Source: Catajapyx aquilonaris (Eukaryota). From it: a stretch of DNA of 20,000 nucleotides. The translations under genes and the position numbers were made by a program. The stretch lies in NCBI GenBank assembly GCA_000934665.2, contig KZ538496.1:46143-66142 (forward strand), given 5' to 3'. Numbering within the stretch: position 1 is the stretch's first letter; the number at the start of each line of letters is the position of its first letter. Shown in pieces: positions 1-18,080 of this stretch. Under the pieces are notes generated by a model that was not told the origin of the DNA, did no database searches, and saw only the letters and a list, made by a program, of their open reading frames with translations.

Positions 1-1353
1 GGGCGTCTCGAATTCTTTCCTAATTGGCTCAAGAAGCGAGTTCAGCATCCTTTCAACCGTTGCCTTCAGGTCGCCTGGATGAAGCTCCTGCTTTGCGTAG
101 GCCTGCTCCAGCGCATCGTAGGAAGTGTAGTTCGCGGATCCTCCATTCGCCTCATCTCGTTCCACCTTAAAACCTTAAACATTTCACAAACTGCATCTGA
201 GAGCCAAAAAATGTACGTTTCATCATAATTAGCGGAAATAATTTTACAAAGAATTGCAGTGTACGAACGGCTGTATAATTCTCACCTTCGTTAGGTTTCA
301 TCAGTGGAAACAGCACATGCTTGACGAAGGAAAGGACACCGTTGTCCTCCACGTTCCCTGGCTCGCAAAAGGCCTTCTTCAGCTTCTTCTTAACGGCTGC
401 CGGAGTGTCCAGTAGGTCTATCTTGCTGTCTTCCTCAGACGAAGACATCTTCGCTCCAGTTAGCCCTGGAACTATGATCAAATGGTAAGTATTCTGCATA
501 CAAACGTGACGTAGCGTGCAACATACCCATCGGATTCATAAGATGTATCCGCTTCTTGTACCCAAGCTGCGGCAGATATTTCTCAGCGAATGTGAAAATC
601 TTCCTCTGGTCCACCCCGCCAAACTGTGCGTCCACTTCCAGGTACTCCTCGTCCAAGGCCTGGAGTCCTGGATAAATAAGACCGGACAGCAGCGGATGCT
701 CCACCTGCTTGACCACCTCGGCCCCAGCCTTTCTCGCATCATGCTCAGTCACCATGGAGGTCAGCCTGTACACGTCTAAAGTGTACTTCCTGTCCAGCTG
801 GTAGTCCGTTCCCCGCACGAATCTTAGTTTCTCAAGAGGTACCCCGATGGAACTGAGCATCGCACGGATAATCGCCTGGTAATACTCGACTCGTAACTCC
901 AGCAGTTCCCACGGCGCTTTCATATTGTCCAAGTAAGCGTGCAAGTCCGCAAACAATATGGTCACCTGGAAAGGAATCTCTGTTGCATCAGTTACATGCT
1001 GCTGCTTATTATCACTTCAAAACATATCGTTATGTCCCACTCAGTAAACTTAATCATCACGCTCTAAATACAGAGAGGGCAAGTTTATCATCATTGTGGG
1101 CACATTTCAGAGCAAACAAATCCCTAACCTCACACCCCGCTCGCAACAGGTCGCCAATCTTGGTCATGGGCACGAAGTACGCAATGTGCGGCTTCCCAGT
1201 CGTGGCCGTCCCCCAGTAGACCTTCAGGCTCCTCTCCTTCAGGATCTGGTCCAGCTGGTCCTCCCCCAAAATTTCCTGCAAGTTGCGTCTCACCAGCTGC
1301 TGCTTCTCCTCCCACGTCTGGCCGTCTGAGACCCCAACAAGATTCGCCGCCAT
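1..1353 (-). CDS. YARS1: Cytoplasmic tyrosine--tRNA ligase, 5' part (runs off the left edge); exons 1353-1129, 965-527, 471-286, 173-<1
   Basis: Spliced translation gives [15 protein letters not shown] (HIGH-like), [29 protein letters not shown] (KMSKS-like) and LHPGDLK. All three introns are GT-AG and keep the frame. Confidence 0.97.
1036..1100 (-). ncRNA. Intronic box C/D snoRNA, SNORD103/SNORD85-like (predicted guide for the 18S site equivalent to human Gm601)
   Basis: Minus strand reads CCCAC-A-ATGATGA (C)...AAACTTGCCCTCT-CTGT (D')...GTGATGA (C')...CTGA (D)-GTGGG, with a terminal stem, 70 nt from the 3' splice site. Guide ACTTGCCCTC is complementary to conserved 18S GAGGGCAAGU, and the D'+5 rule points to the middle G. 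Confidence 0.88.
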
Positions 1354-1442
1354 GTTCACAATCTGCAAATAAACTTGATGATGTACCACAAATTTTCAAA
1401 AGCAAGATCACGCATATTTTTAAAGTCGCAGTTCATGAGTGT

Positions 1443-1520
1443 CCCCTCAGAGTCTGGTTCATTATTTTTTACGTTTTCGCTTTCTTCACTTGATGTAAGT
1501 ACAGACGATCATCACCGGGG
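1443..1520 (-). ncRNA. Intronic box C/D snoRNA, target uncertain
   Basis: Minus strand reads CCCC-G-GTGATGA (C)...AATGAACCAGACT-CTGA (D)-GGGG, with a 4-bp terminal stem, 80 nt upstream of the acceptor at 1363. It is almost perfectly retained in the duplicate at 5352-5433. Confidence 0.8.
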
Positions 1521-1573
1521 TTGCGTTTACAAGCCTGAGCGTGCCATGCGGTTAGTATGAAGCTTCCCGTCAC

Positions 1574-1825
1574 CTGCGCTCCCATGCAAGACGACTGCAG
1601 CTTGACAAATGGAAGGTTGCTCCGTTCCCTGCAGTCCAGGCTGGAGATGTGCCTTCTCCAGCGTGTCGCATGCGGATAACTAGTGGCGTCCAGACTAATG
1701 TTCTGTACGGCCCTATGCACCTGGATGTCCACTTGGGTCAACCAGTGGTCCAGAATGTATGTCCTGGAGGCCAGGTGGTCCTCCAGAACTTGCAAAAAGT
1801 CCATCTGAAACCCCAACAACTCCAT
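1574..1825 (-). CDS. EF1B-N-terminal/GST-C-like domain exon (84 codons), probable alternative N-terminal exon of TyrRS
   Basis: MELLGFQMDFLQVLEDHLASRTYILDHWLTQVDIQVHRAV...YPHATRWRRHISS matches the recalled L..HL..RSY..G...SQAD..VF.......HA.RW..HI pattern of eEF1B and the CARS1 GST-like exon. The phase-0 donor CAG|GTGACG at 1574/1573 matches the phase-0 acceptor TTGCAG|ATT at 1363/1362. Confidence 0.72.
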
Positions 1826-1990
1826 TGTTCTCAATATACAGAGTCATTCAACATGGGGCTTCCTTTCGATTATTTTTAGTGATGCAAGAGTGGTTTTCAG
1901 GGCGAGCCTAAACCGACCGTGTCCCCAAGCCGAAGCGCCATGATTCCGGCCTCCCAAATCCCCGAATAAAGAAGGGAAAACGAAACGAAC

Positions 1991-2176
1991 CTGACCAGTT
2001 CGCCGACCACGCCATCAGAGAGAGAAAGGCCGGATGTGACGTCACTTCAACCGTTACTCCCCGTTTACATCTGCTAGGCCACCACTCACATTGGGCCAAT
2101 CAGAAAGCAGGAAGCCACATGACGCATGCGTGTATAATTCACGCCAACTGGCGCGTGTAAACTATGCCGGAAGTGT
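1991..2176 (-). promoter_or_regulatory. TyrRS promoter and probable short first exon
   Basis: TOP/TCT-like tract CCTTTCTCTCTCT (2029-2017), donor CAG|GTTCGT at 1991/1990, CRE palindrome TGACGTCA (2037-2044), CCAAT box near 2096 and ETS-like CCGGAAGT near 2167. Most of these are retained in the copy at 5441-5876. Confidence 0.6.
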
Positions 2177-2875
2177 CACCCGGCGTAATCTATTTACTCA
2201 CAGTTTAATATGAAGCTTTTAATTTAGATGCAAATTAAATTTTAAAGTATTTTGCAACCATCTTTGAAACTTATTAAAGAGAATCGCTATTATTGGCAGG
2301 ATTGTGGCCAAAGATTGTGGCGCGAATTCAAATGTCTGCAAATGGGGTTGAAATTCCTCTAGTCACAAAATGGCTTCGTTCTGCACTACCCAATTATTAT
2401 TATTAATTATTATTATTCGCAATACGCAGAAGCGGCGCCCACAGCATGTGCTGGTCAGGTATGAAACGCCTTCCAATATTGAAACCAATGTTTCAACTAT
2501 TGAAATTGGAGAATTCAGAACGGACGTTGGTTGTCACTGGAATAAACGTGAAAGGTTTGGAACACAAGCACTCTCAGGTTCGGTTGTTTACTTTTTTAAT
2601 GATCTCTCTCTCTCTCTCATCTCTCCCTCCCGCCTGGATACATGTTGATTTTTCAGACGGAGGTTGAGGCAGCAGCGGCTGCTTTGGCAACAAGGCGCTG
2701 GTCCCTCTCCTCTGCGACGGTCAGCTTGATACCCTTGCCCTTTGGCAGGGATACGTACGCCTTCGTGCCCTTTCCAATCATGAAAATGTAGTTTTACCTG
2801 GAATCGGAAAGGAAGACACGCATTATTAACCCAAGTGTAAACAATGCTAGTGTCCAACACTGAGTATGGCAAAAA

Positions 2876-3017
2876 GTATGTCCTCGCTGTGGGTAATGCT
2901 GATTCGACACTTAATAATCCAGACCAGCGACCTTTCAGAGAGAGTTACTATGCCCACCTTTTTGACCGCCCGTACACAGGAAATTTAACATAACAGGCGG
3001 CTTCGATCAGGGGCATG
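2876..3017 (-). ncRNA. H/ACA snoRNA, SNORA16-like (copy in the RPS4 pseudogene intron)
   Basis: Near-identical to 9689-9830. Both pocket strands, the H box and the ACA box are intact; the differences lie in the apical loop region. Confidence 0.82.
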
Positions 3018-3413
3018 CTTTCAGAATAACAGGTACAAACGTACCTGGTGGCAAACACATTTCCATTTGTGTCCTTGACGTGCACGATGTCAAAGGACCC
3101 CAGATGTCTCTCCCTGGACACGACTGTGCCCACTCGCCCCAAGTTGCGCCCTCCAGTGATCATGCAGAGGTTCCCCGTCTCAAACTTGATGAAGTCCAGG
3201 ATCTTCCCTGTGCCAATGTCCATCTGGATGGAGTCGTTGGCCTTGATCAGGGGATCGGGATAGCGGATGGTACGGCCATCATGGGTCACCAGGTACGGGA
3301 CAGCCTTGGGGCCCAACTGCGCACGCAGGACACGACACAGCTTGTACTGCAACCAAACAACGCGTTAAAAAATGGCCAAAAAATCCAATCGCAGATTTCA
3401 CGGAGCTAAGAAA

Positions 3414-3490
3414 TCCTCTCAGCATCTGCCTCATTCTTTCGTCAATTAATAATCAGGTCAAGCGTCTATTACATTTTACATCCTTGAGGA
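3414..3490 (-). ncRNA. Box C/D snoRNA (copy of the RPS4 intron 2 snoRNA)
   Basis: Near-identical to 10227-10303. GACGCTTGAC-CTGA and ATGAGGCAGATG-CTGA are retained, with a TCCTC/GAGGA stem; the C box is degenerate. Confidence 0.65.
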
Positions 3491-3798
3491 TTGCGCGACA
3501 AGATTTGTTAATAATTAAATTGTTATAATCACCTTGTCCTCTTCTGGCATGATCTGATGTATGATGAACCTTGGTGTCGTAAATGAGCCGAAAGTCGCCG
3601 GTGTTGTCGATGGTGATTACATCCATGAATCCGGACAGATAGTTGGGATCCATTTGTGCCTTCCCATCCTCCATTATTAGAAGCTGCATCACTATCAAAA
3701 TAATGATCCCTCCAAACAATATGGTCACCTGGAACGGAACCTCTGTTGCATCAGTTACATGCTGCCACTTGTTAACATTTCAAAATTTATCGGTATGT

Positions 3799-3863
3799 CC
3801 CACTCAGTAAACTTAATCATCACACTCTAAATGCAGAGAGGGCAAGTTTGTCATCATTGTGGG
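3799..3863 (-). ncRNA. Box C/D snoRNA, SNORD103/85-like copy
   Basis: Copy of 1036-1100 with C, C' and D boxes, guide AACTTGCCCTC and CCCAC/GTGGG stem intact. Confidence 0.8.
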
Positions 3864-4455
3864 AACATTTCAAAGCAAATAAATCTCTAACCTCACACCC
3901 CGCTCTCAACAGGTCGCCAATTTTGGTCATGGGCACAAAGAACGCAATGTGCGCCTTCCCACACTTTCTTCTTTGGGTTGAGCACCGCGTCTGGTGAGCC
4001 TGTTTCGTACCCATCGACGTACACTCTGTCCCCTGCGATGCTCTCGCTTGGAAGGTCAAGTGGCGCCAGGGCTCAAGGGCTGCCGGCTGATGCGCACAAC
4101 ACCATTACTTTCGACTCGACCCCTTTGAGTTTCGCAGGGTTCAGGTTGCACAGGACCACAACCAGGCGGTTCTGCATCTCCTCAAGCGGCACAAATGATG
4201 TTGTCACTGAATCATTAGGAACTCATCATTTTTATCAAATGTTGCACTAGCTACATTACATATTTGACAAAAGCAACTATCAAGTTACCTAAATCAATAG
4301 ATTCTATGTACAGGATGTTTCTTCACATCGACGACTTTCCCAATGCGGATGTCCAGTTTGTGTGGCGCAATCACGTCATCCTCCTCTGCAATGAAAATGA
4401 TCGCAATCAGAACAAGTTTGTGCGAACTAAATTCATTACATGAATAAGCAAATTT

Positions 4456-4876: not shown

Positions 4877-5079
4877 AAAATCTCATCGCTTCATGTTCGA
4901 GAATCAAATTCAATGAAATTATGACTTACGTTTCTCCCAACTCCAGCAGTTCCCACGGCGCTTTCATATTGTCCAAGTAAGCGTGCAGGTCCGCAAACAA
5001 TATGGTCACCTGGAACGGAACCTCTGTTGCATCAGTTACATGCTGCCACTTGTTAACATTTCAAAATTTATCGGTATGC

Positions 5080-5144
5080 CCCACTCAGTAAACTTAATCA
5101 TCACGCTCTAAATACAGAGAGGGCAAGTTTATCATCATTGTGGG
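5080..5144 (-). ncRNA. Box C/D snoRNA, SNORD103/85-like copy
   Basis: Identical by eye to 1036-1100. Confidence 0.83.
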
Positions 5145-5351
5145 CACATTTCAGAGCAAACAAATCCCTAACCTCACACCCCAAAATTTCCTGCAAGTTG
5201 CGTCTCACCAGCTGCTGCTTCTCCCAACTCGGGCCGTCGGGGACCCCAACAAGATTCGCCGCCATGTTCACAATCTGCAAATAAACATGCTGACGAATCA
5301 CAAATTTTCAGAAGCAAGACCACGCATCTTGTTAAAGTCGCAGTTCAGTGT

Positions 5352-5433
5352 CCCCTCAGAGTCTGGTTCATTAATTATTTTTTACGTTTTCGCTTTCTTC
5401 ACTTGATGTAAGTACAGACGATCATCACCGGGG
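5352..5433 (-). ncRNA. Box C/D snoRNA, copy of 1443-1520
   Basis: Same boxes, guide and CCCC/GGGG stem, with a 4-nt insertion in the AT-rich middle. Confidence 0.75.
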
Positions 5434-5440
5434 TTGCGTT

Positions 5441-5876
5441 AGGCAGAAGCCCCATGAAGCAGCCTCTATATTCCGGCCCCCCAAATCCCCCGAAGAAAAG
5501 AAGGAAAAACGAAACAAACCTGACCACGCGGCCATCGAAAGAGAAAGAGACCGGGCGGATGTGACGTCACTTCAAGTCTTCAACCGTTACTCCCCGTTTA
5601 CATCTGCTAGGCCACCACTCACATTCGGCCAATCAGAACGCAGGATATTACATGACGCATGCGTGTATGATTCAGGCCAACTGGTGCGTGTAAACCATGC
5701 CGGAAGCGTCATCTATTTACTGCAATTGCTTGTATTTACTGACAGTTTAAACGGTTTAAACCTTTACTTTGATATAAATTAATTTTTGGAAGTATTTTCA
5801 AACATTCTTTGGACTTATGGAACAGGATTGAACAGGTCGGCAGGGATGCGGCGCCAATTCAAATATGAAATTCCTC
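5441..5876 (-). promoter_or_regulatory. Duplicate of the TyrRS promoter and first exon
   Basis: Aligns to about 1927-2358. Keeps the TCTCTTTCTCTTTC tract (5550-5537), CAG|GTTTGT donor, TGACGTCA, CCAAT and CCGGAAG. Confidence 0.75.
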
Positions 5877-6136: not shown

Positions 6137-9100
6137 ATGCCGCAGCACTGCTCTGCAGATGGGTGCAAATCGAGGGCCGACAAGGGCGGCTCGGGAATAT
6201 CCTTTCACAGGTGAAGCAAAACGCAGCGCAGCGCCGTACACAGCACTTAACGACAATGAATTTTTAACATTGCAGTTACCCCTTGAAGAATCCAGAGTTG
6301 CTCGCCAAATGGATGAACAACCTGCGTCGGGTGAATTTCACGCCATCAATTCACAGCAAACTGTGCAGCCTGCACTTCACACACGACAGCTACCAGAAAA
6401 GACCAGGTGCTAATATACCACTCTTGAAGAAGGATGCTGTACCGACAGTATTCATCTCTCAGCAGCACCTGCGAGAGAAAGTGCCCTCACGGAAACCACC
6501 ACCACCAAAGAGGAGATGCGCCAGTGACAGTTCTCAGCCTACAGCGAAGGTAACGCATATTGTGTGTACGACAATATGCCATTATGGGTAATCCACATGA
6601 AATGTGTGAGCATTGTCATGACAAATGTTACTACTCCATGTCACATTGGAATCCATTGTTCTTGCATGCATCTCTTTTTTTGCACAAAATGATGCCCACT
6701 GCCCACAGGAAATGTTACTGCCTACATAATAGCGTAGTGACCTGTGACTGGTCAACCATCAAATGATGTCTCAAGTTGTTATTAAAGTTCATTGATTGAT
6801 TATTTCTCAGAGGATGAAAAGCGATGGACTTGCCAAGAACACGCTGACAGCTGATACATCTGGAAATAATAGTCGTCACATCCATGCAGCTGGAAACCCC
6901 ACGGAACCCATTATTACTTCATCACCAACGAAGAAGAAATTGCCCCAGAAGATGCTTCAACAGAATCTGCGGCGCCGACCAACCAAGATCAACAAGATGA
7001 AGGATCTCCTCGAGTCATTAAGGAGAAAAAACTTGATTGGGGAGGTGGCAGAGAGTCTTCTGGCCGAGTCTTTTTCTGGATTGCAGCTGCTTAATAAGGA
7101 TCCCATTAAGAACGACTCCGCCAGCAGCCCAAATGGGTACAGGTATTCAAAGGAAGTGAAAAGATTTTCCATGACTTTGTATTACCAGTCTCCGAAGGCA
7201 TACAGGTTCGCGCGGTCTCACTTTAGGTTGCCACATGTCTCCCTGCTTCAGAAATGGTGCTCTAATGTAGAAGCAGAACCAGGGTTCTTAACTGATGCTT
7301 TCAACTACTTGCAAAAAAAAACCAGTGAGCAACCGTGGCTGGCTGACTGCGGTTTGGTGCTTGGCAGTATGTCAATTAGGAAATGCATGGAGTACAATTC
7401 AGCTACAAAAAGCTATGCTGGATATGTAGATTACGGTGGAGCTATAGCGGAAGCATGTGAAACTCTAGCTTCGGAAGTCTTGGTGTTTATGGTGGTATCA
7501 CTTGTCGGCAAATTTAAATTTCCAGTTGCATACTTCCTTACGGACAAAGTTGCAGGAAACGTGCAGTGTCAGCTTATCCGAGTTTGCCTGGAGAAACTGG
7601 ATAATGTTGGAATTAGGGTATGGACACTTACATTAGATGGGTGTGCCTCTAGTGTTCGTACAGTCCAGGAACTAGGTGTGAATTTCACCGGTGACGTCCC
7701 CAAACTGACCACACACTTCTTGCATCCTACTAGACAGTATGAGGTCTACGTAATTTTCGATCCTTGCCACATGCTGAAACTGGCAAGGAACAGCCTCGCA
7801 GATTTAAAGGTATTGCAGTCGCTAAAGGGCACAATATCATGGAATTATGTTGCGAAACTGCATGAATTGCAGGAAAAGGAAGTGGGCAATAAGCTGTCCC
7901 GAAATCATGTACAAAAATTGAAAGTGTGCGTGGCCGCTCAAACACTGAGTGGCTCAGTGGCCTCTGCGCTTCATTTTTTGAGAGATGGACTGAAGCTTAA
8001 GGAGTTCATGGGGTCAGAAGCAACATGTGAGTTCATGGAGATGCTGGACAAGATATTTGATTTGTGTAATTCAAAGAATCCATTTGCAAAGGGCTACAAG
8101 GCTGCTTTACGACTATCCAATCAACATGTTTGGCTGGCAACTGTCTCTCAAGCCGAAAAGTACCTCACGTCCTTGCAAATTGTCATGGAGTCGGGTCGAG
8201 CACACCCCATTATTCTTCATAGACGCAAGACTTTTGTGATTGGTTTTCTGCTTACCTTGAAATCATTGAAGTCCGTTGCAATGCACTTTCTCACTAGAGA
8301 GGTCAATCCACTGAATTACGTCATAACATATCGTTTCTCGCAAGATCACTTAGAAATGCATTTTGCAAAAATCCGAGGATGGAACAATAACCCTAGCTCT
8401 CTTCAGGTGAAACGGTTGCTTTGCCATGTACAAGCTTCTTCAACAGGCAATTGCAGGATGCCTAATGATTTGCCTGACCCTGCAGACATATTTGAGTTTA
8501 GGTCATCAAAGAGATCGCTGAGGGACCTATCAAATGAAGAGGATACCTGCAGAGAGAGAGAATCTTGTGTGGCAGAATTACTAGATTCCTGTGCCCTGTC
8601 AGAGTTCACAGAAAACGTATTGTATTACATTGGTGGTTTCATAGTGCGCCGTTTAATGAAAACCATCACATGTCAACCTTGCATGGAGGGTCTTGTCGCC
8701 AGTCCAGTTGGAGACCATAATTATTCCTTCGCTGGGCCAATGAGCGTGTTTACAGACATGGACAACAATGGGGGTTTAATAAAACCATCCGCAGCTGCGT
8801 TCACTGTTGTCAAAGCATGTGAACGTGCTTTCCGTGTGGTAATGTTTGGTGAGGATTTCTCGCAAATTAAAAAAAAAAGTTTTGCAAGTGTTCTTGTGCA
8901 TAGTGTTTTCCGCCGAGTGTGCCATTTGCCACTGTTTCAAGGAGGTACTGCACATGACTTATACGAGTGTGAAATTTTTGATGAGAGGCACTCTTTTCAA
9001 GTGATCAAGAAAATTGCAGAGTGCTACTTTTCGCTCAGACTGAAAACCTATGCAAAGAATTTCACTACTGAGAACTTCCATATTGGTGTGCGCCAGAAGC

Positions 9101-9141
9101 TTATGAAACGTATTTTATTTTGCCACGAATCAACAAAGTGA
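6137..9141 (+). CDS. THAP-domain P-element-family transposase (THAP9-like), about 892 aa; exons 6137-6210, 6276-6549, 6811-9141
   Basis: Spliced N-terminus MPQHCSADGC...SFHSYPLKNPELLAKW...LCSLHF...LKKDAVPTVF is a C2CH THAP zinc finger. It is followed by SPKAY..R..LP, EPGF, LTLDG, DPCHMLKLARN, SQDHLE, WNNNP, YYIGGF and GGLIKPS motifs. Both GT-AG introns keep the frame. Confidence 0.93.
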
Positions 9142-9477
9142 CCTAACATGCAAAGGCTGAGGTGGCGTTTGTACAGTAGTGTCGGTATGGGTTGTAATGT
9201 TGACTTTCTTATTTTGTATATCTTGCACTATAATTCTTGTTTTACTTTCAACATGTAGCATTGTAATGTGTTATTATGAAGGTTTCCTTGAGAAAATACA
9301 CTTGTATGGAAAGGGATAGCGAGTTATGCATCTTACGTGCTGTCATCAGTGCCCTGTGGCTGAATGCCACTGGAATAAATGGGAAAGGTTTGGAACGCAA
9401 GAACTCTCATGTTCGGTTGTTTACTTTTTTTAATGATCTCTCTCTCTCTCCCTCCCGCCTGGATACATGTTGATTTT

Positions 9478-11101
9478 TCAGACGGACGTTGAGGCAGCAG
9501 CGGCTGCTTTGGCAGCAAGGCGCTGGTCCCTTTCCTCTGCGATGGTCAGCTTGATACCCTTGCCCTTTGGCAGGGATACGTACGCCTTCGTGCCCTTTCC
9601 AATCATGAAAATGTAGTTTTGCCTGGAATCGGAAAAGAAGACACGCATTATTAACCCAAGTGTAAACAACGCTAGTGTCCAACACTGAGTATGTCCTCGC
9701 TGTGGGTAATGCTGATTCGACACTTAATAATCCAGACCAGCGACCTTTCAGAGAGAGTTACTATGCCCACCTTTTTGACCGCCCGTACGCAGGTAATTTA
9801 ACATAACAGGCGGCTTCGATCAGGGGCATGCTTTCAGAATAACAGGTGCAAACGTACCTGGTGGCAAACACATTTCCATTTGTGTCCTTGACGTGCACGA
9901 TGTCAAAGGACCCCGGATGTCTCTCCCTGGACACGACTGTGCCCACTCGCCCCAAGTTGCGCCCTCCAGTGATCATGCAGAGGTTCCCGGTCTCAAACTT
10001 GATGAAGTCCAGGATCTTCCCTGTGCCAATGTCCATCTGGATGGAGTCGTTGGCCTTGATCAGGGGATCGGGGTAGCGGATGGTACGGCCATCATGGGTC
10101 ACCAGGTACGGGACAGCCTTGGGGCCCAACTGCGCACGCAGGACACGACACAGCTTGTACTGCAACCAAACAAGGTGTTAAAAAATGGCCAAAAAATCAA
10201 ACCACAAATTTCACGGAGTTAAGAAATCCTCTCAGAATCTGCCTCATTCTTTCGTCAATGAATAATCAGGTCAAGCGTCTATTACATTCTACATCCTTGA
10301 GGATCGCACGACAAGATTTGTTAATAATTAATTTCTTATAGTCACCTTCGCCTCTTCTGGAGTGATCCGATGCACGATGAACCTCCCCTTGGTGTCGTAA
10401 ATGAGCCGAAAGTGCTCTCCGGTCTTGTCAATGGTGATCACATCCATGAATCCGGATGGATAGTTGGGATCCGTTCGCACCTTCCCGTCCACCTTTATTA
10501 GACGCTGCATCACTATTTTTTTAACCTCCGCCGCAGTCAGTGCGTACTTCAGCCGGTTCCGAAGAAAGATGATTAGCGGCAGGCATTCCCTCAGCTTGTG
10601 GGGGCCTGAGCTAGGCCGAGGTGCGAACACCCCGGCCAGCTTCCCCAACATCCAGTGCTTCGGCGCATGGATACGCTTCAAGTGTTTACGCGGTCCGCGA
10701 ACCTGTAAAAATTAATAACACATAAGTAAACATGTCCCACTTGCTGCAACGGACTGTGTCCGCCCCAGAAAATTCCTCTCAGAATCTGCCTCATGCTATC
10801 TTCACTTGTAAAAATCAGGTCAAGCGTCATGATCATTCATCACTGAGGATCTGTACACACAATTAATTGCACTAATTGGCCCCCCCTAAAATTTGGAACA
10901 TATCGGGAATAATTCGAACACTTTTTTTCCCCCACATTGATTTTCAGGCTGCTCTCAACCAACACCGGTTCGACCAGTACCGTTTTTCATCCGGAATTTT
11001 TCCCGGGACAATCCGGACACCTGGATGAACCGGGGATGGCCGATCCGGTGGCGGATAAGCCCGGATTTTATGTTGAAAAGGGAAGAAAAAGGACTCACCA
11101 T
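9478..11101 (-). CDS. RPS4: 40S ribosomal protein S4 (eS4), 268 aa; exons 11101-11099 (ATG only), 10702-10346, 10159-9858, 9622-9478
   Basis: [20 protein letters not shown]...[11 protein letters not shown]...[12 protein letters not shown]...GGRNLGRVG...[14 protein letters not shown], with canonical splice sites and no stops. Confidence 0.97.
9689..9830 (-). ncRNA. H/ACA snoRNA, SNORA16 (ACA16)/yeast snR46-like, in RPS4 intron 3
   Basis: Hairpin 1 ATGCCC..ATCGAAG-CCGCCTGT...ACGGGCGG-TCAAAAAG..GGGCAT, H box ATAGTA, hairpin 2 TCGCTG...CAGCGA, then ACA plus 3 nt. The pocket pairs with conserved 28S CUUUUUGA-UC-CUUCGAU. Confidence 0.9.
10227..10303 (-). ncRNA. Box C/D snoRNA in RPS4 intron 2 (paralogue of the intron 1 snoRNA; degenerate C box)
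   Basis: TCCTC-AAGGATGT...GACGCTTGAC-CTGA...TTGACGA...ATGAGGCAGATT-CTGA-GAGGA, 67 nt from the acceptor. Confidence 0.72.
10774..10849 (-). ncRNA. Box C/D snoRNA in RPS4 intron 1, probably dual-guide (D guide SNORD90-like)
   Basis: TCCTC-A-GTGATGA (C)...GACGCTTGAC-CTGA (D')...GTGAAGA (C')...ATGAGGCAGATT-CTGA (D)-GAGGA, 71 nt from the acceptor. Confidence 0.88.
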
Positions 11102-16269: not shown

Positions 16270-16862
16270 TCACTCGTAAAAAAAAACTTTGAGCGAAAAT
16301 GTCACTCGAAAATATATTCTAAAAACTTTTGAGTCGAAATCTCACTCTAAAAATGTTGATTGAAAATCTCACTAAATTTTTATTGTCGCTCTCGAAAATA
16401 TTTTGAGTGAAAATCTCGCTCTAAAATGTTGAGTGATAATCTCGCTCTAAACATTTTTGAGTGAAAATCTCTCTCTAAATATTTTGAGGGAAAATATCGC
16501 TCTAAAATGTTGATTGAAAATCTCACTAAATTTTTTATTATCTCTCTCGAAAATATTTTGAGTGAAAATCTCGCTCTAAAAATGTTGAGTGAAAATCTCG
16601 CTCTAAACATTTTTGAGTGAAAATCTCGCTCTAAATATTTTGAGTTAAAAATCTCTCGAAACATTTTAAGTGAATAATCTCACTCTAAAATGTTGAGTTA
16701 AAAATCACTCGAAACATTGGTTTTAAGTGAATAATCTCACTCTAAAAATGTTGAGTGAAAATCTTGCTCTGAAATATTTTGAGTGAAAATCTCGCTCTAA
16801 ACATTTTTGAGTGAAAATATCACTCGAAACATTTTTAAGTGAATAATCTCACTCTAAAAATG
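16270..16862. repeat. Tandem array of about 26-bp imperfectly palindromic units (TTTGAGTGAAAATCTCGCTCTAAAxAT) with a 154-bp higher-order duplication
   Basis: Roughly 20 visible units. The variant block GTTGATTGAAAATCTCACTAAATTTTTTATT recurs at 16355 and 16509. Confidence 0.92.
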
Positions 16863-17217
16863 AGAACTTACGCAAAATGTTACTTTTTGAGTGAATTTCA
16901 CTCCGCAAAGAGCTACTTGAACTCAAATCGAGTGAAAAAAATAGTCGAAAGAAGAGTGAAATTGAGTGGGGGGAGGAAACTGTTCTTTCAGTGAGTGATA
17001 CCGGTTTCACTCATTTTGAGTTGTTTTTTTTTCGCTCGAATGTGAAATGATCACTCAATTTTAGTGGAAATATGTCACTCAAGTGATGATCGAGTGATTT
17101 TCCACTCAATTTGAGCCGTAATCAATCCAGGTTAGAATCACACATTCAGTAAAAAAATCACTCAAATTGAGTGAAAAATTACTCTAAAGAAGAGTGAAAA
17201 TGAGCGGGGGGGGGGGG

Positions 17218-17243
17218 NNNNNNNNNNNNNNNNNNNNNNNNNN
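17218..17243. other. Assembly gap (26 N) after a poly-G run
   Basis: Run of n characters. Confidence 1.
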
Positions 17244-18080
17244 GCGATATGCCCATTTCACTCAATTTCAGTGGTTTTTTCGCTCGAATCTGAGTGAAAT
17301 GATCGCTCAGTTTGAGTGGATATATTTCACTCACGTGATCGAGTGATTTCCACTTAATTTGAGCCGCAATCAATCCGGGTAGAGGGTTGAGTGACAAAAT
17401 CACTCAAATTGAGTGTAAATCCACACAAATTTGTGTAAGAGTTACAACCAGCAGCACTAATTGAAAGGTCATGTTCGTGATCCCACACTGGATGAAAGGG
17501 AATTTTGTTTTACACCATTTGGTTTCCCTCAGCCACAGCCAAAGACGTTAATAACACTTCTTCATACAAGGACATCGTTTCTAGACCACTGATAAGGGGG
17601 GGTAAAAAGAGATAAGACTTTCTTTTCCCCTCTCCAGTACAGTAGCCCCACGCGCCATTGCATTTAATCGGGGCCCCCCTTTTCCTTCCCCTAGTCCAAT
17701 GGTACTCCGATATCGTTTCCCCCTGTAAAGGTTCATAGAGGAAAAAGAAGAAGAAGAGTGGAGGCGAAAACCTGCCTCCGGTTCATCTTTTATGGATGAG
17801 ATCGGCTGCCGTTTCATCGCCCCCCACCCTTCCACCCTTCCACCCCCCTCTCCCGCTTTAAAAAAATATAAGTAAACATGGCTCCTGGACCTTGCTCCTG
17901 ATAAATAAGAGGAACCTCTCTCTTTTTATGGTGGCTCGCTCGATGAGTAGATGTTGGGGATCGACCTCAAAAGGAGAAGAAAAACTCGGATGTGATGCAT
18001 GGAAAGTCAGCCTGGAAAATGAGAGAGAGAAAATGGCGGTTAACATGCTGGACTATATGTCCGTTTTGACTCACCTTGTA

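Follow-up and report, generated by a model that had tools for sequence, protein, structure and literature searches.

The subject of this analysis is a stretch of 20,000 nucleotides from Catajapyx aquilonaris (GenBank assembly GCA_000934665.2, contig KZ538496.1, positions 46,143 to 66,142 of the forward strand), which is called the window throughout. On its minus strand, at 2028..1, it carries a gene identified by sequence as the cytoplasmic tyrosyl-tRNA synthetase (TyrRS) of the animal type. Upstream of the ancestral start codon of this gene lies an additional exon of 84 codons (exon E, 1574..1825, minus strand), and in a transcript exon E is joined in frame to TyrRS; the fusion is real and expressed. 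Judging by sequence searches and a structure model, the encoded module is homologous to the eEF1B-alpha (EEF1B2) N-terminal domain, which is a shortened helical bundle of the GST_C type. A fusion protein of this composition very probably exists. The complete explanation, namely an expressed fusion with an eEF1B-alpha-like module that docks the enzyme on a partner and is encoded by an old exon, is regarded as likely.

A previous sequence-only reading had proposed an 84-codon frame ending at a phase-0 donor and a phase-0 acceptor leading into TyrRS, and both were recovered. Translation of 1825..1574 yielded 84 residues without a stop (labelled P0001) with the end ...GCG CAG/GTGACG, which places a phase-0 donor at 1574. 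The acceptor TTTGCAG/ATT GTG AAC ATG opens exon 2 at 1362, likewise in phase 0, and the frame continues as IVN-MAANLV... into TyrRS free of stops. Transcript evidence was taken from the public run X1, available as contigs of unrecorded kind, which were compared with window positions 1-2600. The run contained 41% of the words sampled from 1100-2100. A single contig matched; it comprised 1701 nt, showed 0 differences to the window and ran along the minus strand in the pieces 1808-1574, 1362-1127, 963-527, 471-284 and 171-1. All four joints between these pieces are GT..AG on the minus strand, and one of them is exactly 1574>1362 with 211 nt skipped. The 211-nt intron that separates exon E from exon 2, where TyrRS proper begins (1363..1573, GT..AG), which had been suspected from the letters only, is therefore real. 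Because the contig lacks four introns, its source must be a spliced RNA, irrespective of how the library is labelled; the same splice would be recorded even in a processed DNA copy.

The coordinates of the TyrRS gene were all verified on the minus strand. Exon 2 (1129..1362; contig and PF00579) comprises three former leader codons (IVN), the ancestral ATG at 1353-1351 and the N-terminal part of the catalytic domain; this exon alone matched PF00579 in Pfam with 30.1 bits (cut-off 21.1, E 3.9e-7). The catalytic core follows in exon 3 (527..965), which is delimited by contig joints and shows 84-88% identity to annotated animal TyrRS. Exon 4 (286..471; contig and translation) contains the KMSSS loop. 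Exon 5 (1..173; contig) reaches the end of the window, the gene extends past window base 1, and the contig continues for 434 nt beyond this base. The window ends before the C-terminal EMAP II-like region of TyrRS. The spliced partial translation contains ...GKPHIAYF... and ...KMSSS... and shows 74-79% identity to proteins from termites, Lepidoptera and fish alike.

Sequence reading furthermore suggested a putative non-coding first exon (leader exon, 1991..2028) with the donor GGTCAG/GTTCGT, its final base at 1991, and a pyrimidine-rich CTTTCTCTCTCT tract at about 2027-2016. Upstream of it lies a promoter-like region, also recognized by sequence reading on the minus strand, with the GTGACGTCAC palindrome and a pyrimidine tract. 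The leader region is kept in a second, truncated copy of the gene (copy B, see below), where 1943-2274 aligned with 5470-5818 at 78% identity by self-BLAST. Exon E offers two in-frame ATG codons, at 1825 and 1804, and a candidate acceptor tttcag/ATG at 1805/1804. The contig from run X1 begins at 1808; it covers the ATG at 1804, and the ATG at 1825 lies outside. It opens with TCAG-ATG(1804), the leader exon ends in ...GGTCAG, and the genome before 1804 reads ...GTTTCAG. A de Bruijn contig breaks where leader-spliced and unspliced forms coexist; the contig start at 1808 is thus a hint that the acceptor at 1805/1804 may be used and that ATG 1804 may be the start codon. Transcription may also start at another site that precedes ATG 1825. 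An out-of-frame ATG with respect to exon E and exon 2 is present at 2013-2015 in the putative leader exon and is kept in copy B; it may open an upstream open reading frame (ORF), or the cap may be too near for its use.

The identity of the exon E module was examined by sequence and structure searches, and the EF1B/GST_C-like domain predicted by the sequence-only reading was found. A phmmer search against PDB chains returned 5dqs_D, the human 'Elongation factor 1-beta', with E 6.3e-7 over query residues 11-76; the other five matches (E 0.12-1) were all GSTs. In a HMMER search of 1.84 billion representative proteins, exon E gave 18 matches at E ≤ 0.001, none of which was a TyrRS. Twelve of the 18 were scanned against Pfam, and four proved to be eEF1B subunits (three with EF1_GNE, one with EF-1_beta_acid) that were matched via their N-terminal region. 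The eEF1B proteins P0004, P0005 and P0014 matched exon E with E values from 8.9e-6 to 5.9e-4 in this search. The residues Y23, D33, R55, W56 and H59 (window numbering) did not vary across the 17 aligned sequences, P0001 among them; exon E deviates at several positions from a conserved eEF1B stretch with the consensus SYV.G..PTQAD. An AlphaFold2 (AF2) model built on the 17-sequence alignment reached a mean pLDDT of 80.4 with a confident core and predicted four helices (residues 2-20, 31-40, 51-62 and 65-69). The top Foldseek match of this model in the PDB was again 5dqs_D (probability 1.00, TM 0.60, rmsd 3.0 over 65 columns, 42% identity). Among the rows listed, ranks 2-10 and most others were GSTs or GST-like N-terminal domains of synthetases, and four weak rows (probability ≤ 0.04) were unrelated. 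In the ESM Atlas, the clusters nearest to P0001 were an unnamed one (0.92) and one named 'Arc1p domain' (0.91; PF21972 on 24% of its members).

Only two of the HMMER matches exceeded 300 aa, namely P0002 (2930 aa) and P0003 (642 aa). Both consist of many tandem GST_C or EF1B-like repeats, with 27 stretches of P0002 matched by P0001 and three GST_C stretches in P0003. A homologue search with the 84 aa for longer proteins gave seven candidates, none at E ≤ 0.01. Two loci retrieved in a metagenome scan with P0001 showed matches of 10 residues each to a SYPHATRW-type word and were rejected as relatives.

Animal TyrRS is usually seen as a free enzyme with a C-terminal EMAP II-like domain as its sole appendage. 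The sequence-only reading had stated this for metazoan TyrRS in general, which is too broad, since blattodean entries carry an N-terminal domain. Among the best 120 of 4826 TyrRS matches to exon 3, one protein, P0131 (612 aa, Logan), was found to possess PF21972 in addition to TyrRS and EMAP II domains. When its first 95 residues served as query, five of 16 candidates were recovered: P0131 itself, P0140 (616 aa, a long TyrRS), P0141 from Cryptotermes secundus (partial, 381 aa), P0142 from Zootermopsis nevadensis (615 aa, NCBI name 'tyrosine--tRNA ligase, cytoplasmic isoform X2') and P0143 from the cockroach Blattella germanica (563 aa). A 909-aa model from Coptotermes formosanus (P0149) belongs to the cluster of P0131, and P0151 is a long TyrRS form grouped with the termite and cockroach entries. 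In P0131, P0140-P0143 and P0149, an EF1B-like N-terminal domain is followed by the old Met. The P0131 cluster also contains calls of 94 and 98 aa named 'glutathione S-transferase' (P0144 and P0145), which represent the termite exon read past its donor after ...KLVE; the mature proteins go on with KFST-MAAS. In the ESM Atlas, the clusters nearest to residues 1-200 of P0131 carried PF00579 only, with Arthropoda as the commonest phylum, and no TyrRS cluster with the N-domain was among them.

The blattodean long forms and the window gene share an EF1B-like helical N-domain of about 70 aa, a short linker, the retained ancestral Met and TyrRS. In both, the module resides on its own exon with a phase-0 joint that precedes the old ATG by a few codons, four in termites and three in the window gene; the linker of the window protein is shorter than the blattodean one. 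The blattodean proteins carry the EMAP II-like C-terminus, a region before which the window stops. The TyrRS fusion architecture is not unique, since it is present in public data for termites and a cockroach. The sequence-only reading had foreseen that a fusion annotated elsewhere would be real but not novel, and it is indeed already contained in automated annotations of Blattodea.

An EF1B-like module was also detected in a synthetase of the other class. P0156 (814 aa, Logan) is a threonyl-tRNA synthetase (ThrRS) with TGS, tRNA_SAD, class II core and anticodon-binding domains and an EF1B-like N-terminal module; P0015, from its 90% cluster, matched P0001 with E 7.5e-4. The N-terminal modules of P0156 and the window protein are alike, but P0156 is a class II enzyme, and P0156-type modules form a separate clade (support 99/98) with the window module outside. 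By these sequence comparisons, synthetases have acquired the EF1B-like domain more than once. Long TyrRS entries (about 700-1000 aa) are also frequent among crustaceans and mites, and one gastropod entry of 1151 aa contains the N-terminal motif three times; this points to TyrRS units that are duplicated in tandem or fused in these lineages.

Several observations weigh against the reading of exon E as an expressed eEF1B-alpha-like module. The transcript support consists of one contig from one run, the record of which does not state RNA; the contig halts at 1808, so that the start codon and the link to the leader exon are unseen, and the out-of-frame leader ATG at 2015 could disturb translation. 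Among the profile searches suggested for the 84 aa, those that returned 5dqs_D and eEF1B proteins bore the domain out, but the Pfam models did not reach their thresholds: exon E matched PF21972 (Arc1p_N_like) with E 1.4e-4 and 22.6 bits, below the curated cut-off of 27, and GST_C with E 0.015 and 16 bits, below the cut-off of 20.7. The Foldseek E-value of the 5dqs_D match was just 0.057, the domain being small. Even genuine eEF1B proteins, P0004 with 23.1 bits and P0016 with 26.5 bits, remained below the PF21972 cut-off of 27, so that this model is weak for the subfamily. Such observations might be taken to mean that exon E is a transcribed but functionless leader, with TyrRS made mainly from ATG 1353 or with a domain without a role. 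The single contig, the absence of protein evidence and the profile scores under the Pfam cut-offs would agree with this. The open frame of 84 codons with its phase-0 fusion, the conservation of all five family-invariant core residues, the confident fold prediction, the position of an in-frame exon E ATG upstream of ATG 1353 in the mRNA and the conservation of the architecture across six blattodean sequences argue against it, and we consider a functionless exon very improbable.

A different question is whether exon E is included in every transcript. The sequence-only reading had proposed an optional exon, with the junction 1574>1362 in one form and 1991>1362 in the other. The former junction was found. 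The latter, exon-skipped form was seen in none of the run X1 contigs, although contigs may lose rare variants, so that this is weak evidence. The sole contig contains exon E and passes position 1362 unbroken. A break would be expected there if an abundant skipping form existed, and such a form is therefore unlikely; together with the lack of a 1991>1362 contig this indicates that the form with exon E is at least dominant in run X1. The run X1 contigs did not cover window positions 1809-2600. If exon E were used as a cassette in some transcripts only, skipping would produce standard TyrRS from ATG 1353, and the tethered share of the enzyme would be adjustable. In favour of this, the gene has preserved the old start codon intact, together with its surroundings. 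Furthermore, the long termite form bears the NCBI label 'isoform X2', and P0100 (524 aa, beginning at the old Met) is 96.6% identical to the long P0131 across the shared 524 residues and comes from a closely related species. The label and P0100 are the only hints of optional use and suggest that both long and short forms exist in termites; against this, P0100 and P0131 belong to different species, and the start of P0100 may reflect placement by a gene caller. Alternative use of exon E thus appears possible, with the chances somewhat on the side of constitutive inclusion.

The origin of exon E was addressed by comparison with copy B (4939..5818, minus strand), a truncated TyrRS 5' region that was found by self-BLAST and alignments and consists of promoter, leader exon, an intron with a small nucleolar RNA (snoRNA) element, part of exon 2, intron 2 and the start of exon 3. 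Identity to the TyrRS gene was 78% for promoter and leader, 91% for the snoRNA intron and the start of exon 2, and 95% for intron 2 and the start of exon 3. Copy B lacks a segment of 415 nt (1528-1942) which holds exon E, and has 29 nt instead; it also lacks 1139-1263. Near both edges of the 415-nt segment only a short GCTTC motif occurs, which is uninformative as a target-site duplication or as transposon ends.

According to the explanation put forward here, exon E would be old and homologous to the termite and cockroach exon, and copy B would have lost it by deletion. Copy B without exon E fits a recent insertion equally well, which counts against an old exon. Two further results count against shared descent of the exons. 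P0001 scored 35-41 bits with eEF1B N-domains and 15-28 bits with blattodean TyrRS N-domains (28% identity over 64 aa with the N-domain of P0131, pairwise E 3e-7), and in a maximum-likelihood tree of 25 N-domains it was placed in an open polytomy, the only supported clades being those of the blattodean TyrRS modules and of the ThrRS type. Between termite and cockroach, identity was 54% in the N-domain and 85% in the core; the N-domain has evolved about three times faster. At this rate, 28% identity between distant lineages would be expected under shared descent. Two fast-evolving descendants would each look nearer to slowly evolving eEF1B than to one another, so that neither scores nor tree decide between descent and independent capture. 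The TyrRS core of the window gene is 75-77% identical to that of termites, about as distant as from fish. The Trp in ...TWEEK is, among the compared sequences, common only to the blattodean sequences and one other protein, which hints weakly at an arthropod and does not amount to a placement.

The same data may alternatively reflect a recent, lineage-specific gain, in which the leader intron with the snoRNA took up a fragment of an eEF1B-type gene after the local duplication and independently of Blattodea. That copy B shares promoter, leader exon, snoRNA intron and exon 2, yet has 29 nt in place of the 415 nt with exon E, would then represent the original state; P0001 is not nearer to the blattodean N-domains than to eEF1B, and the module in ThrRS P0156 indicates that such capture recurs. 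Copy B is, on the other hand, a decayed fragment with at least one further deletion (1139-1263), for which a loss is equally easy. P0001 differs from the conserved eEF1B stretch at several positions, unlike a fresh copy, the junction geometry is that of the termite gene, and the low identity to the blattodean domains is what their fast evolution predicts. A recent gain is rated as rather unlikely. Loss of exon E from copy B is modestly favoured over insertion after the duplication because of the other deletion in copy B, the marked divergence of the module from the eEF1B consensus and the termite-like junction; this preference is inferred.

The intron between exon E and exon 2 contains a box C/D snoRNA-like element (1441..1522, minus strand), which was recognized by sequence reading and comparison of the copies. 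It has a C box TGATGA at 1514-1509, a D box CTGA at 1450-1447 and a terminal stem of CCCC (1520-1517) and GGGG (1446-1443), and about 80 nt separate its 3' end from the acceptor. A scan of the window with Rfam gave no match at gathering level, and the element belongs to no Rfam family; its best match was snoR20a, sub-threshold with 17.3 bits against a required 42 (E 3.7). Between the TyrRS gene (copy A) and copy B, 82 of 82 aligned bases of the element are identical, apart from one 4-nt indel, as compared to 66 of 75 in the downstream intron. The sequence-only reading had taken the element as support for a real intron. The C/D-like element is present, but copy B has the same intron without exon E, so that the intron does not depend on the exon. 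The element is older than the difference between the two copies in exon E and is consequently no evidence for the reality of the exon; the argument was weak.

Further duplicated pieces lie elsewhere in the window. Copy C (3713..4072, minus strand; self-BLAST and alignment) is a chimeric TyrRS fragment. Its portion at about 3956-4072 stems from the EMAP II-like exon and is fused directly, but out of frame, to 3713-3961, which comprises the 3' part of exon 2, intron 2 and the beginning of exon 3. Over 39 aa, the EMAP II piece and residues 535-573 of the termite protein P0131 are 59% identical (E 2e-14). Copy C has the appearance of a breakpoint left by tandem duplication of the TyrRS gene. It adjoins a broken copy of RPS4 (2532-3695, minus strand), which is 92.8% identical to 9365-10516 over 1173 aligned bases and thus to an intact-looking RPS4 copy (9333-10711, minus strand) with open exons and RS4NT, S4 and Ribosomal_S4e matches. 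In the RPS4 copy beside TyrRS, the 3' exons are kept, the 5' part is degraded and a TyrRS fragment is found in its place. From the arrangement of RPS4 and TyrRS copies, it seems that an RPS4-TyrRS unit was duplicated and that its two copies then decayed reciprocally.

Between the duplicated blocks, a THAP-domain exon (6268-6591) is followed by an open frame of 781 codons (6796-9141, plus strand) with Tnp_P_element, TNP-like RNaseH N and C, a GTP-binding insertion domain and THAP9_C. Judged by its sequence, 6268-9141 apparently is an intact THAP9-like transposase. Furthermore, a tandem array with a unit of 28 nt (about 20 copies; also scored with a 55-nt unit) occupies 16318-16862 and 17153-17438. 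Short repeats flank an N run near this array; the window has 26 N in total.

With respect to function, the following mechanism is proposed. Exon E (1825/1804..1574) is joined in phase 0 to what was formerly the first coding exon, at a point 9 nt before the ancestral start codon. Translation would begin at an ATG of exon E itself, probably that at 1804 if the leader exon joins the acceptor at 1805, and would produce a helical module of about 77-84 aa, then IVN, then complete TyrRS. The module would dock the dimeric enzyme on eEF1B-gamma beside eEF1A, so that Tyr-tRNA could be handed over directly. Docking on eEF1B-gamma is proposed because the module is homologous to the eEF1B-alpha N-domain, which according to the PDB entry 5DQS is bound to the GST-like domain of human eEF1B-gamma; reasoning by analogy with the ValRS-eEF1 complex of vertebrates and a human CysRS isoform (both described below), we judge it slightly more probable than not.

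The main functional alternative, likewise founded on analogy, is docking on one of the GST-like domains that occur in the multisynthetase complex (those of MetRS, GluProRS, AIMP2 or AIMP3). Sections of two publications describe GST-like domains as driving the pairwise assembly of synthetase complexes (PMC4394549; PMC3930741), and the best Pfam model for exon E is Arc1p_N_like. TyrRS is described as part of the complex in Toxoplasma (PMC3930741), but according to the same account it is the one complex subunit there without a predicted GST-like domain. The nearest relative of the module in both sequence and structure is, moreover, the eEF1B-alpha N-domain, the partner of which in 5DQS is eEF1B-gamma. 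A multisynthetase partner for the window protein therefore appears improbable, and eEF1B-gamma is preferred.

Vertebrate valyl-tRNA synthetase (ValRS) is tethered to the EF1 complex by an appended GST-like domain, and this link is apparently restricted to Deuterostomia, as stated in a passage of a synthetase-complex review (PMC4394549). A wider speculation is given a rather low probability: the eEF1B-alpha-type N-domain could be a mobile docking module captured independently by TyrRS of the window, TyrRS of Blattodea and ThrRS of another eukaryote, and could provide animals in which ValRS lacks the GST handle with their own channeling complex of synthetase and eEF1B. Copy B would then show the state before a recent exon-shuffling insertion.

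A full-text literature search yielded no paper on a GST- or EF1B-like domain in metazoan TyrRS. In its passages on the subject, the 2015 review mentions TyrRS for archaea and Toxoplasma only and does not mention the fusion (PMC4394549). The architecture thus appears to be contained in automated Blattodea annotations and undescribed in the papers searched. If docking is true, TyrRS would sit on the eEF1B-gamma scaffold in the animal of the window, in termites and in cockroaches, and Tyr-tRNA would be passed straight to eEF1A. Exon E furthermore represents a clean case of a domain gained via a new 5' exon that is spliced just upstream of the old start codon.

A synthetase placed on EF1B has so far been tied to ValRS of deuterostomes and to one isoform of human cysteinyl-tRNA synthetase (CysRS, CARS1). 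For the latter, Kim et al. in 2000 reportedly described an 'elongation factor-associating domain' that is introduced by alternative splicing and is said to bind an EF-1 subunit. The CARS1 isoform and the window gene have in common that a module resembling an EF1 subunit is contributed by one extra exon to a class I synthetase. They differ in the synthetase concerned, and alternative use is established for CARS1, whereas for the window gene the inclusion form only was seen, in one contig. In vertebrate ValRS, a GST-like domain binds an eEF1B subunit; the window protein instead has only a short helical N-domain of the eEF1B-alpha type. The closest counterpart of this module in sequence as well as in structure is the N-domain of eEF1B-alpha itself (5DQS), with which it shares the invariant Y, D, RW and H positions. 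The window module differs from it in several positions that are conserved in eEF1B, in its fusion to TyrRS, and in that neither an acidic region nor a guanine-nucleotide exchange domain follows.

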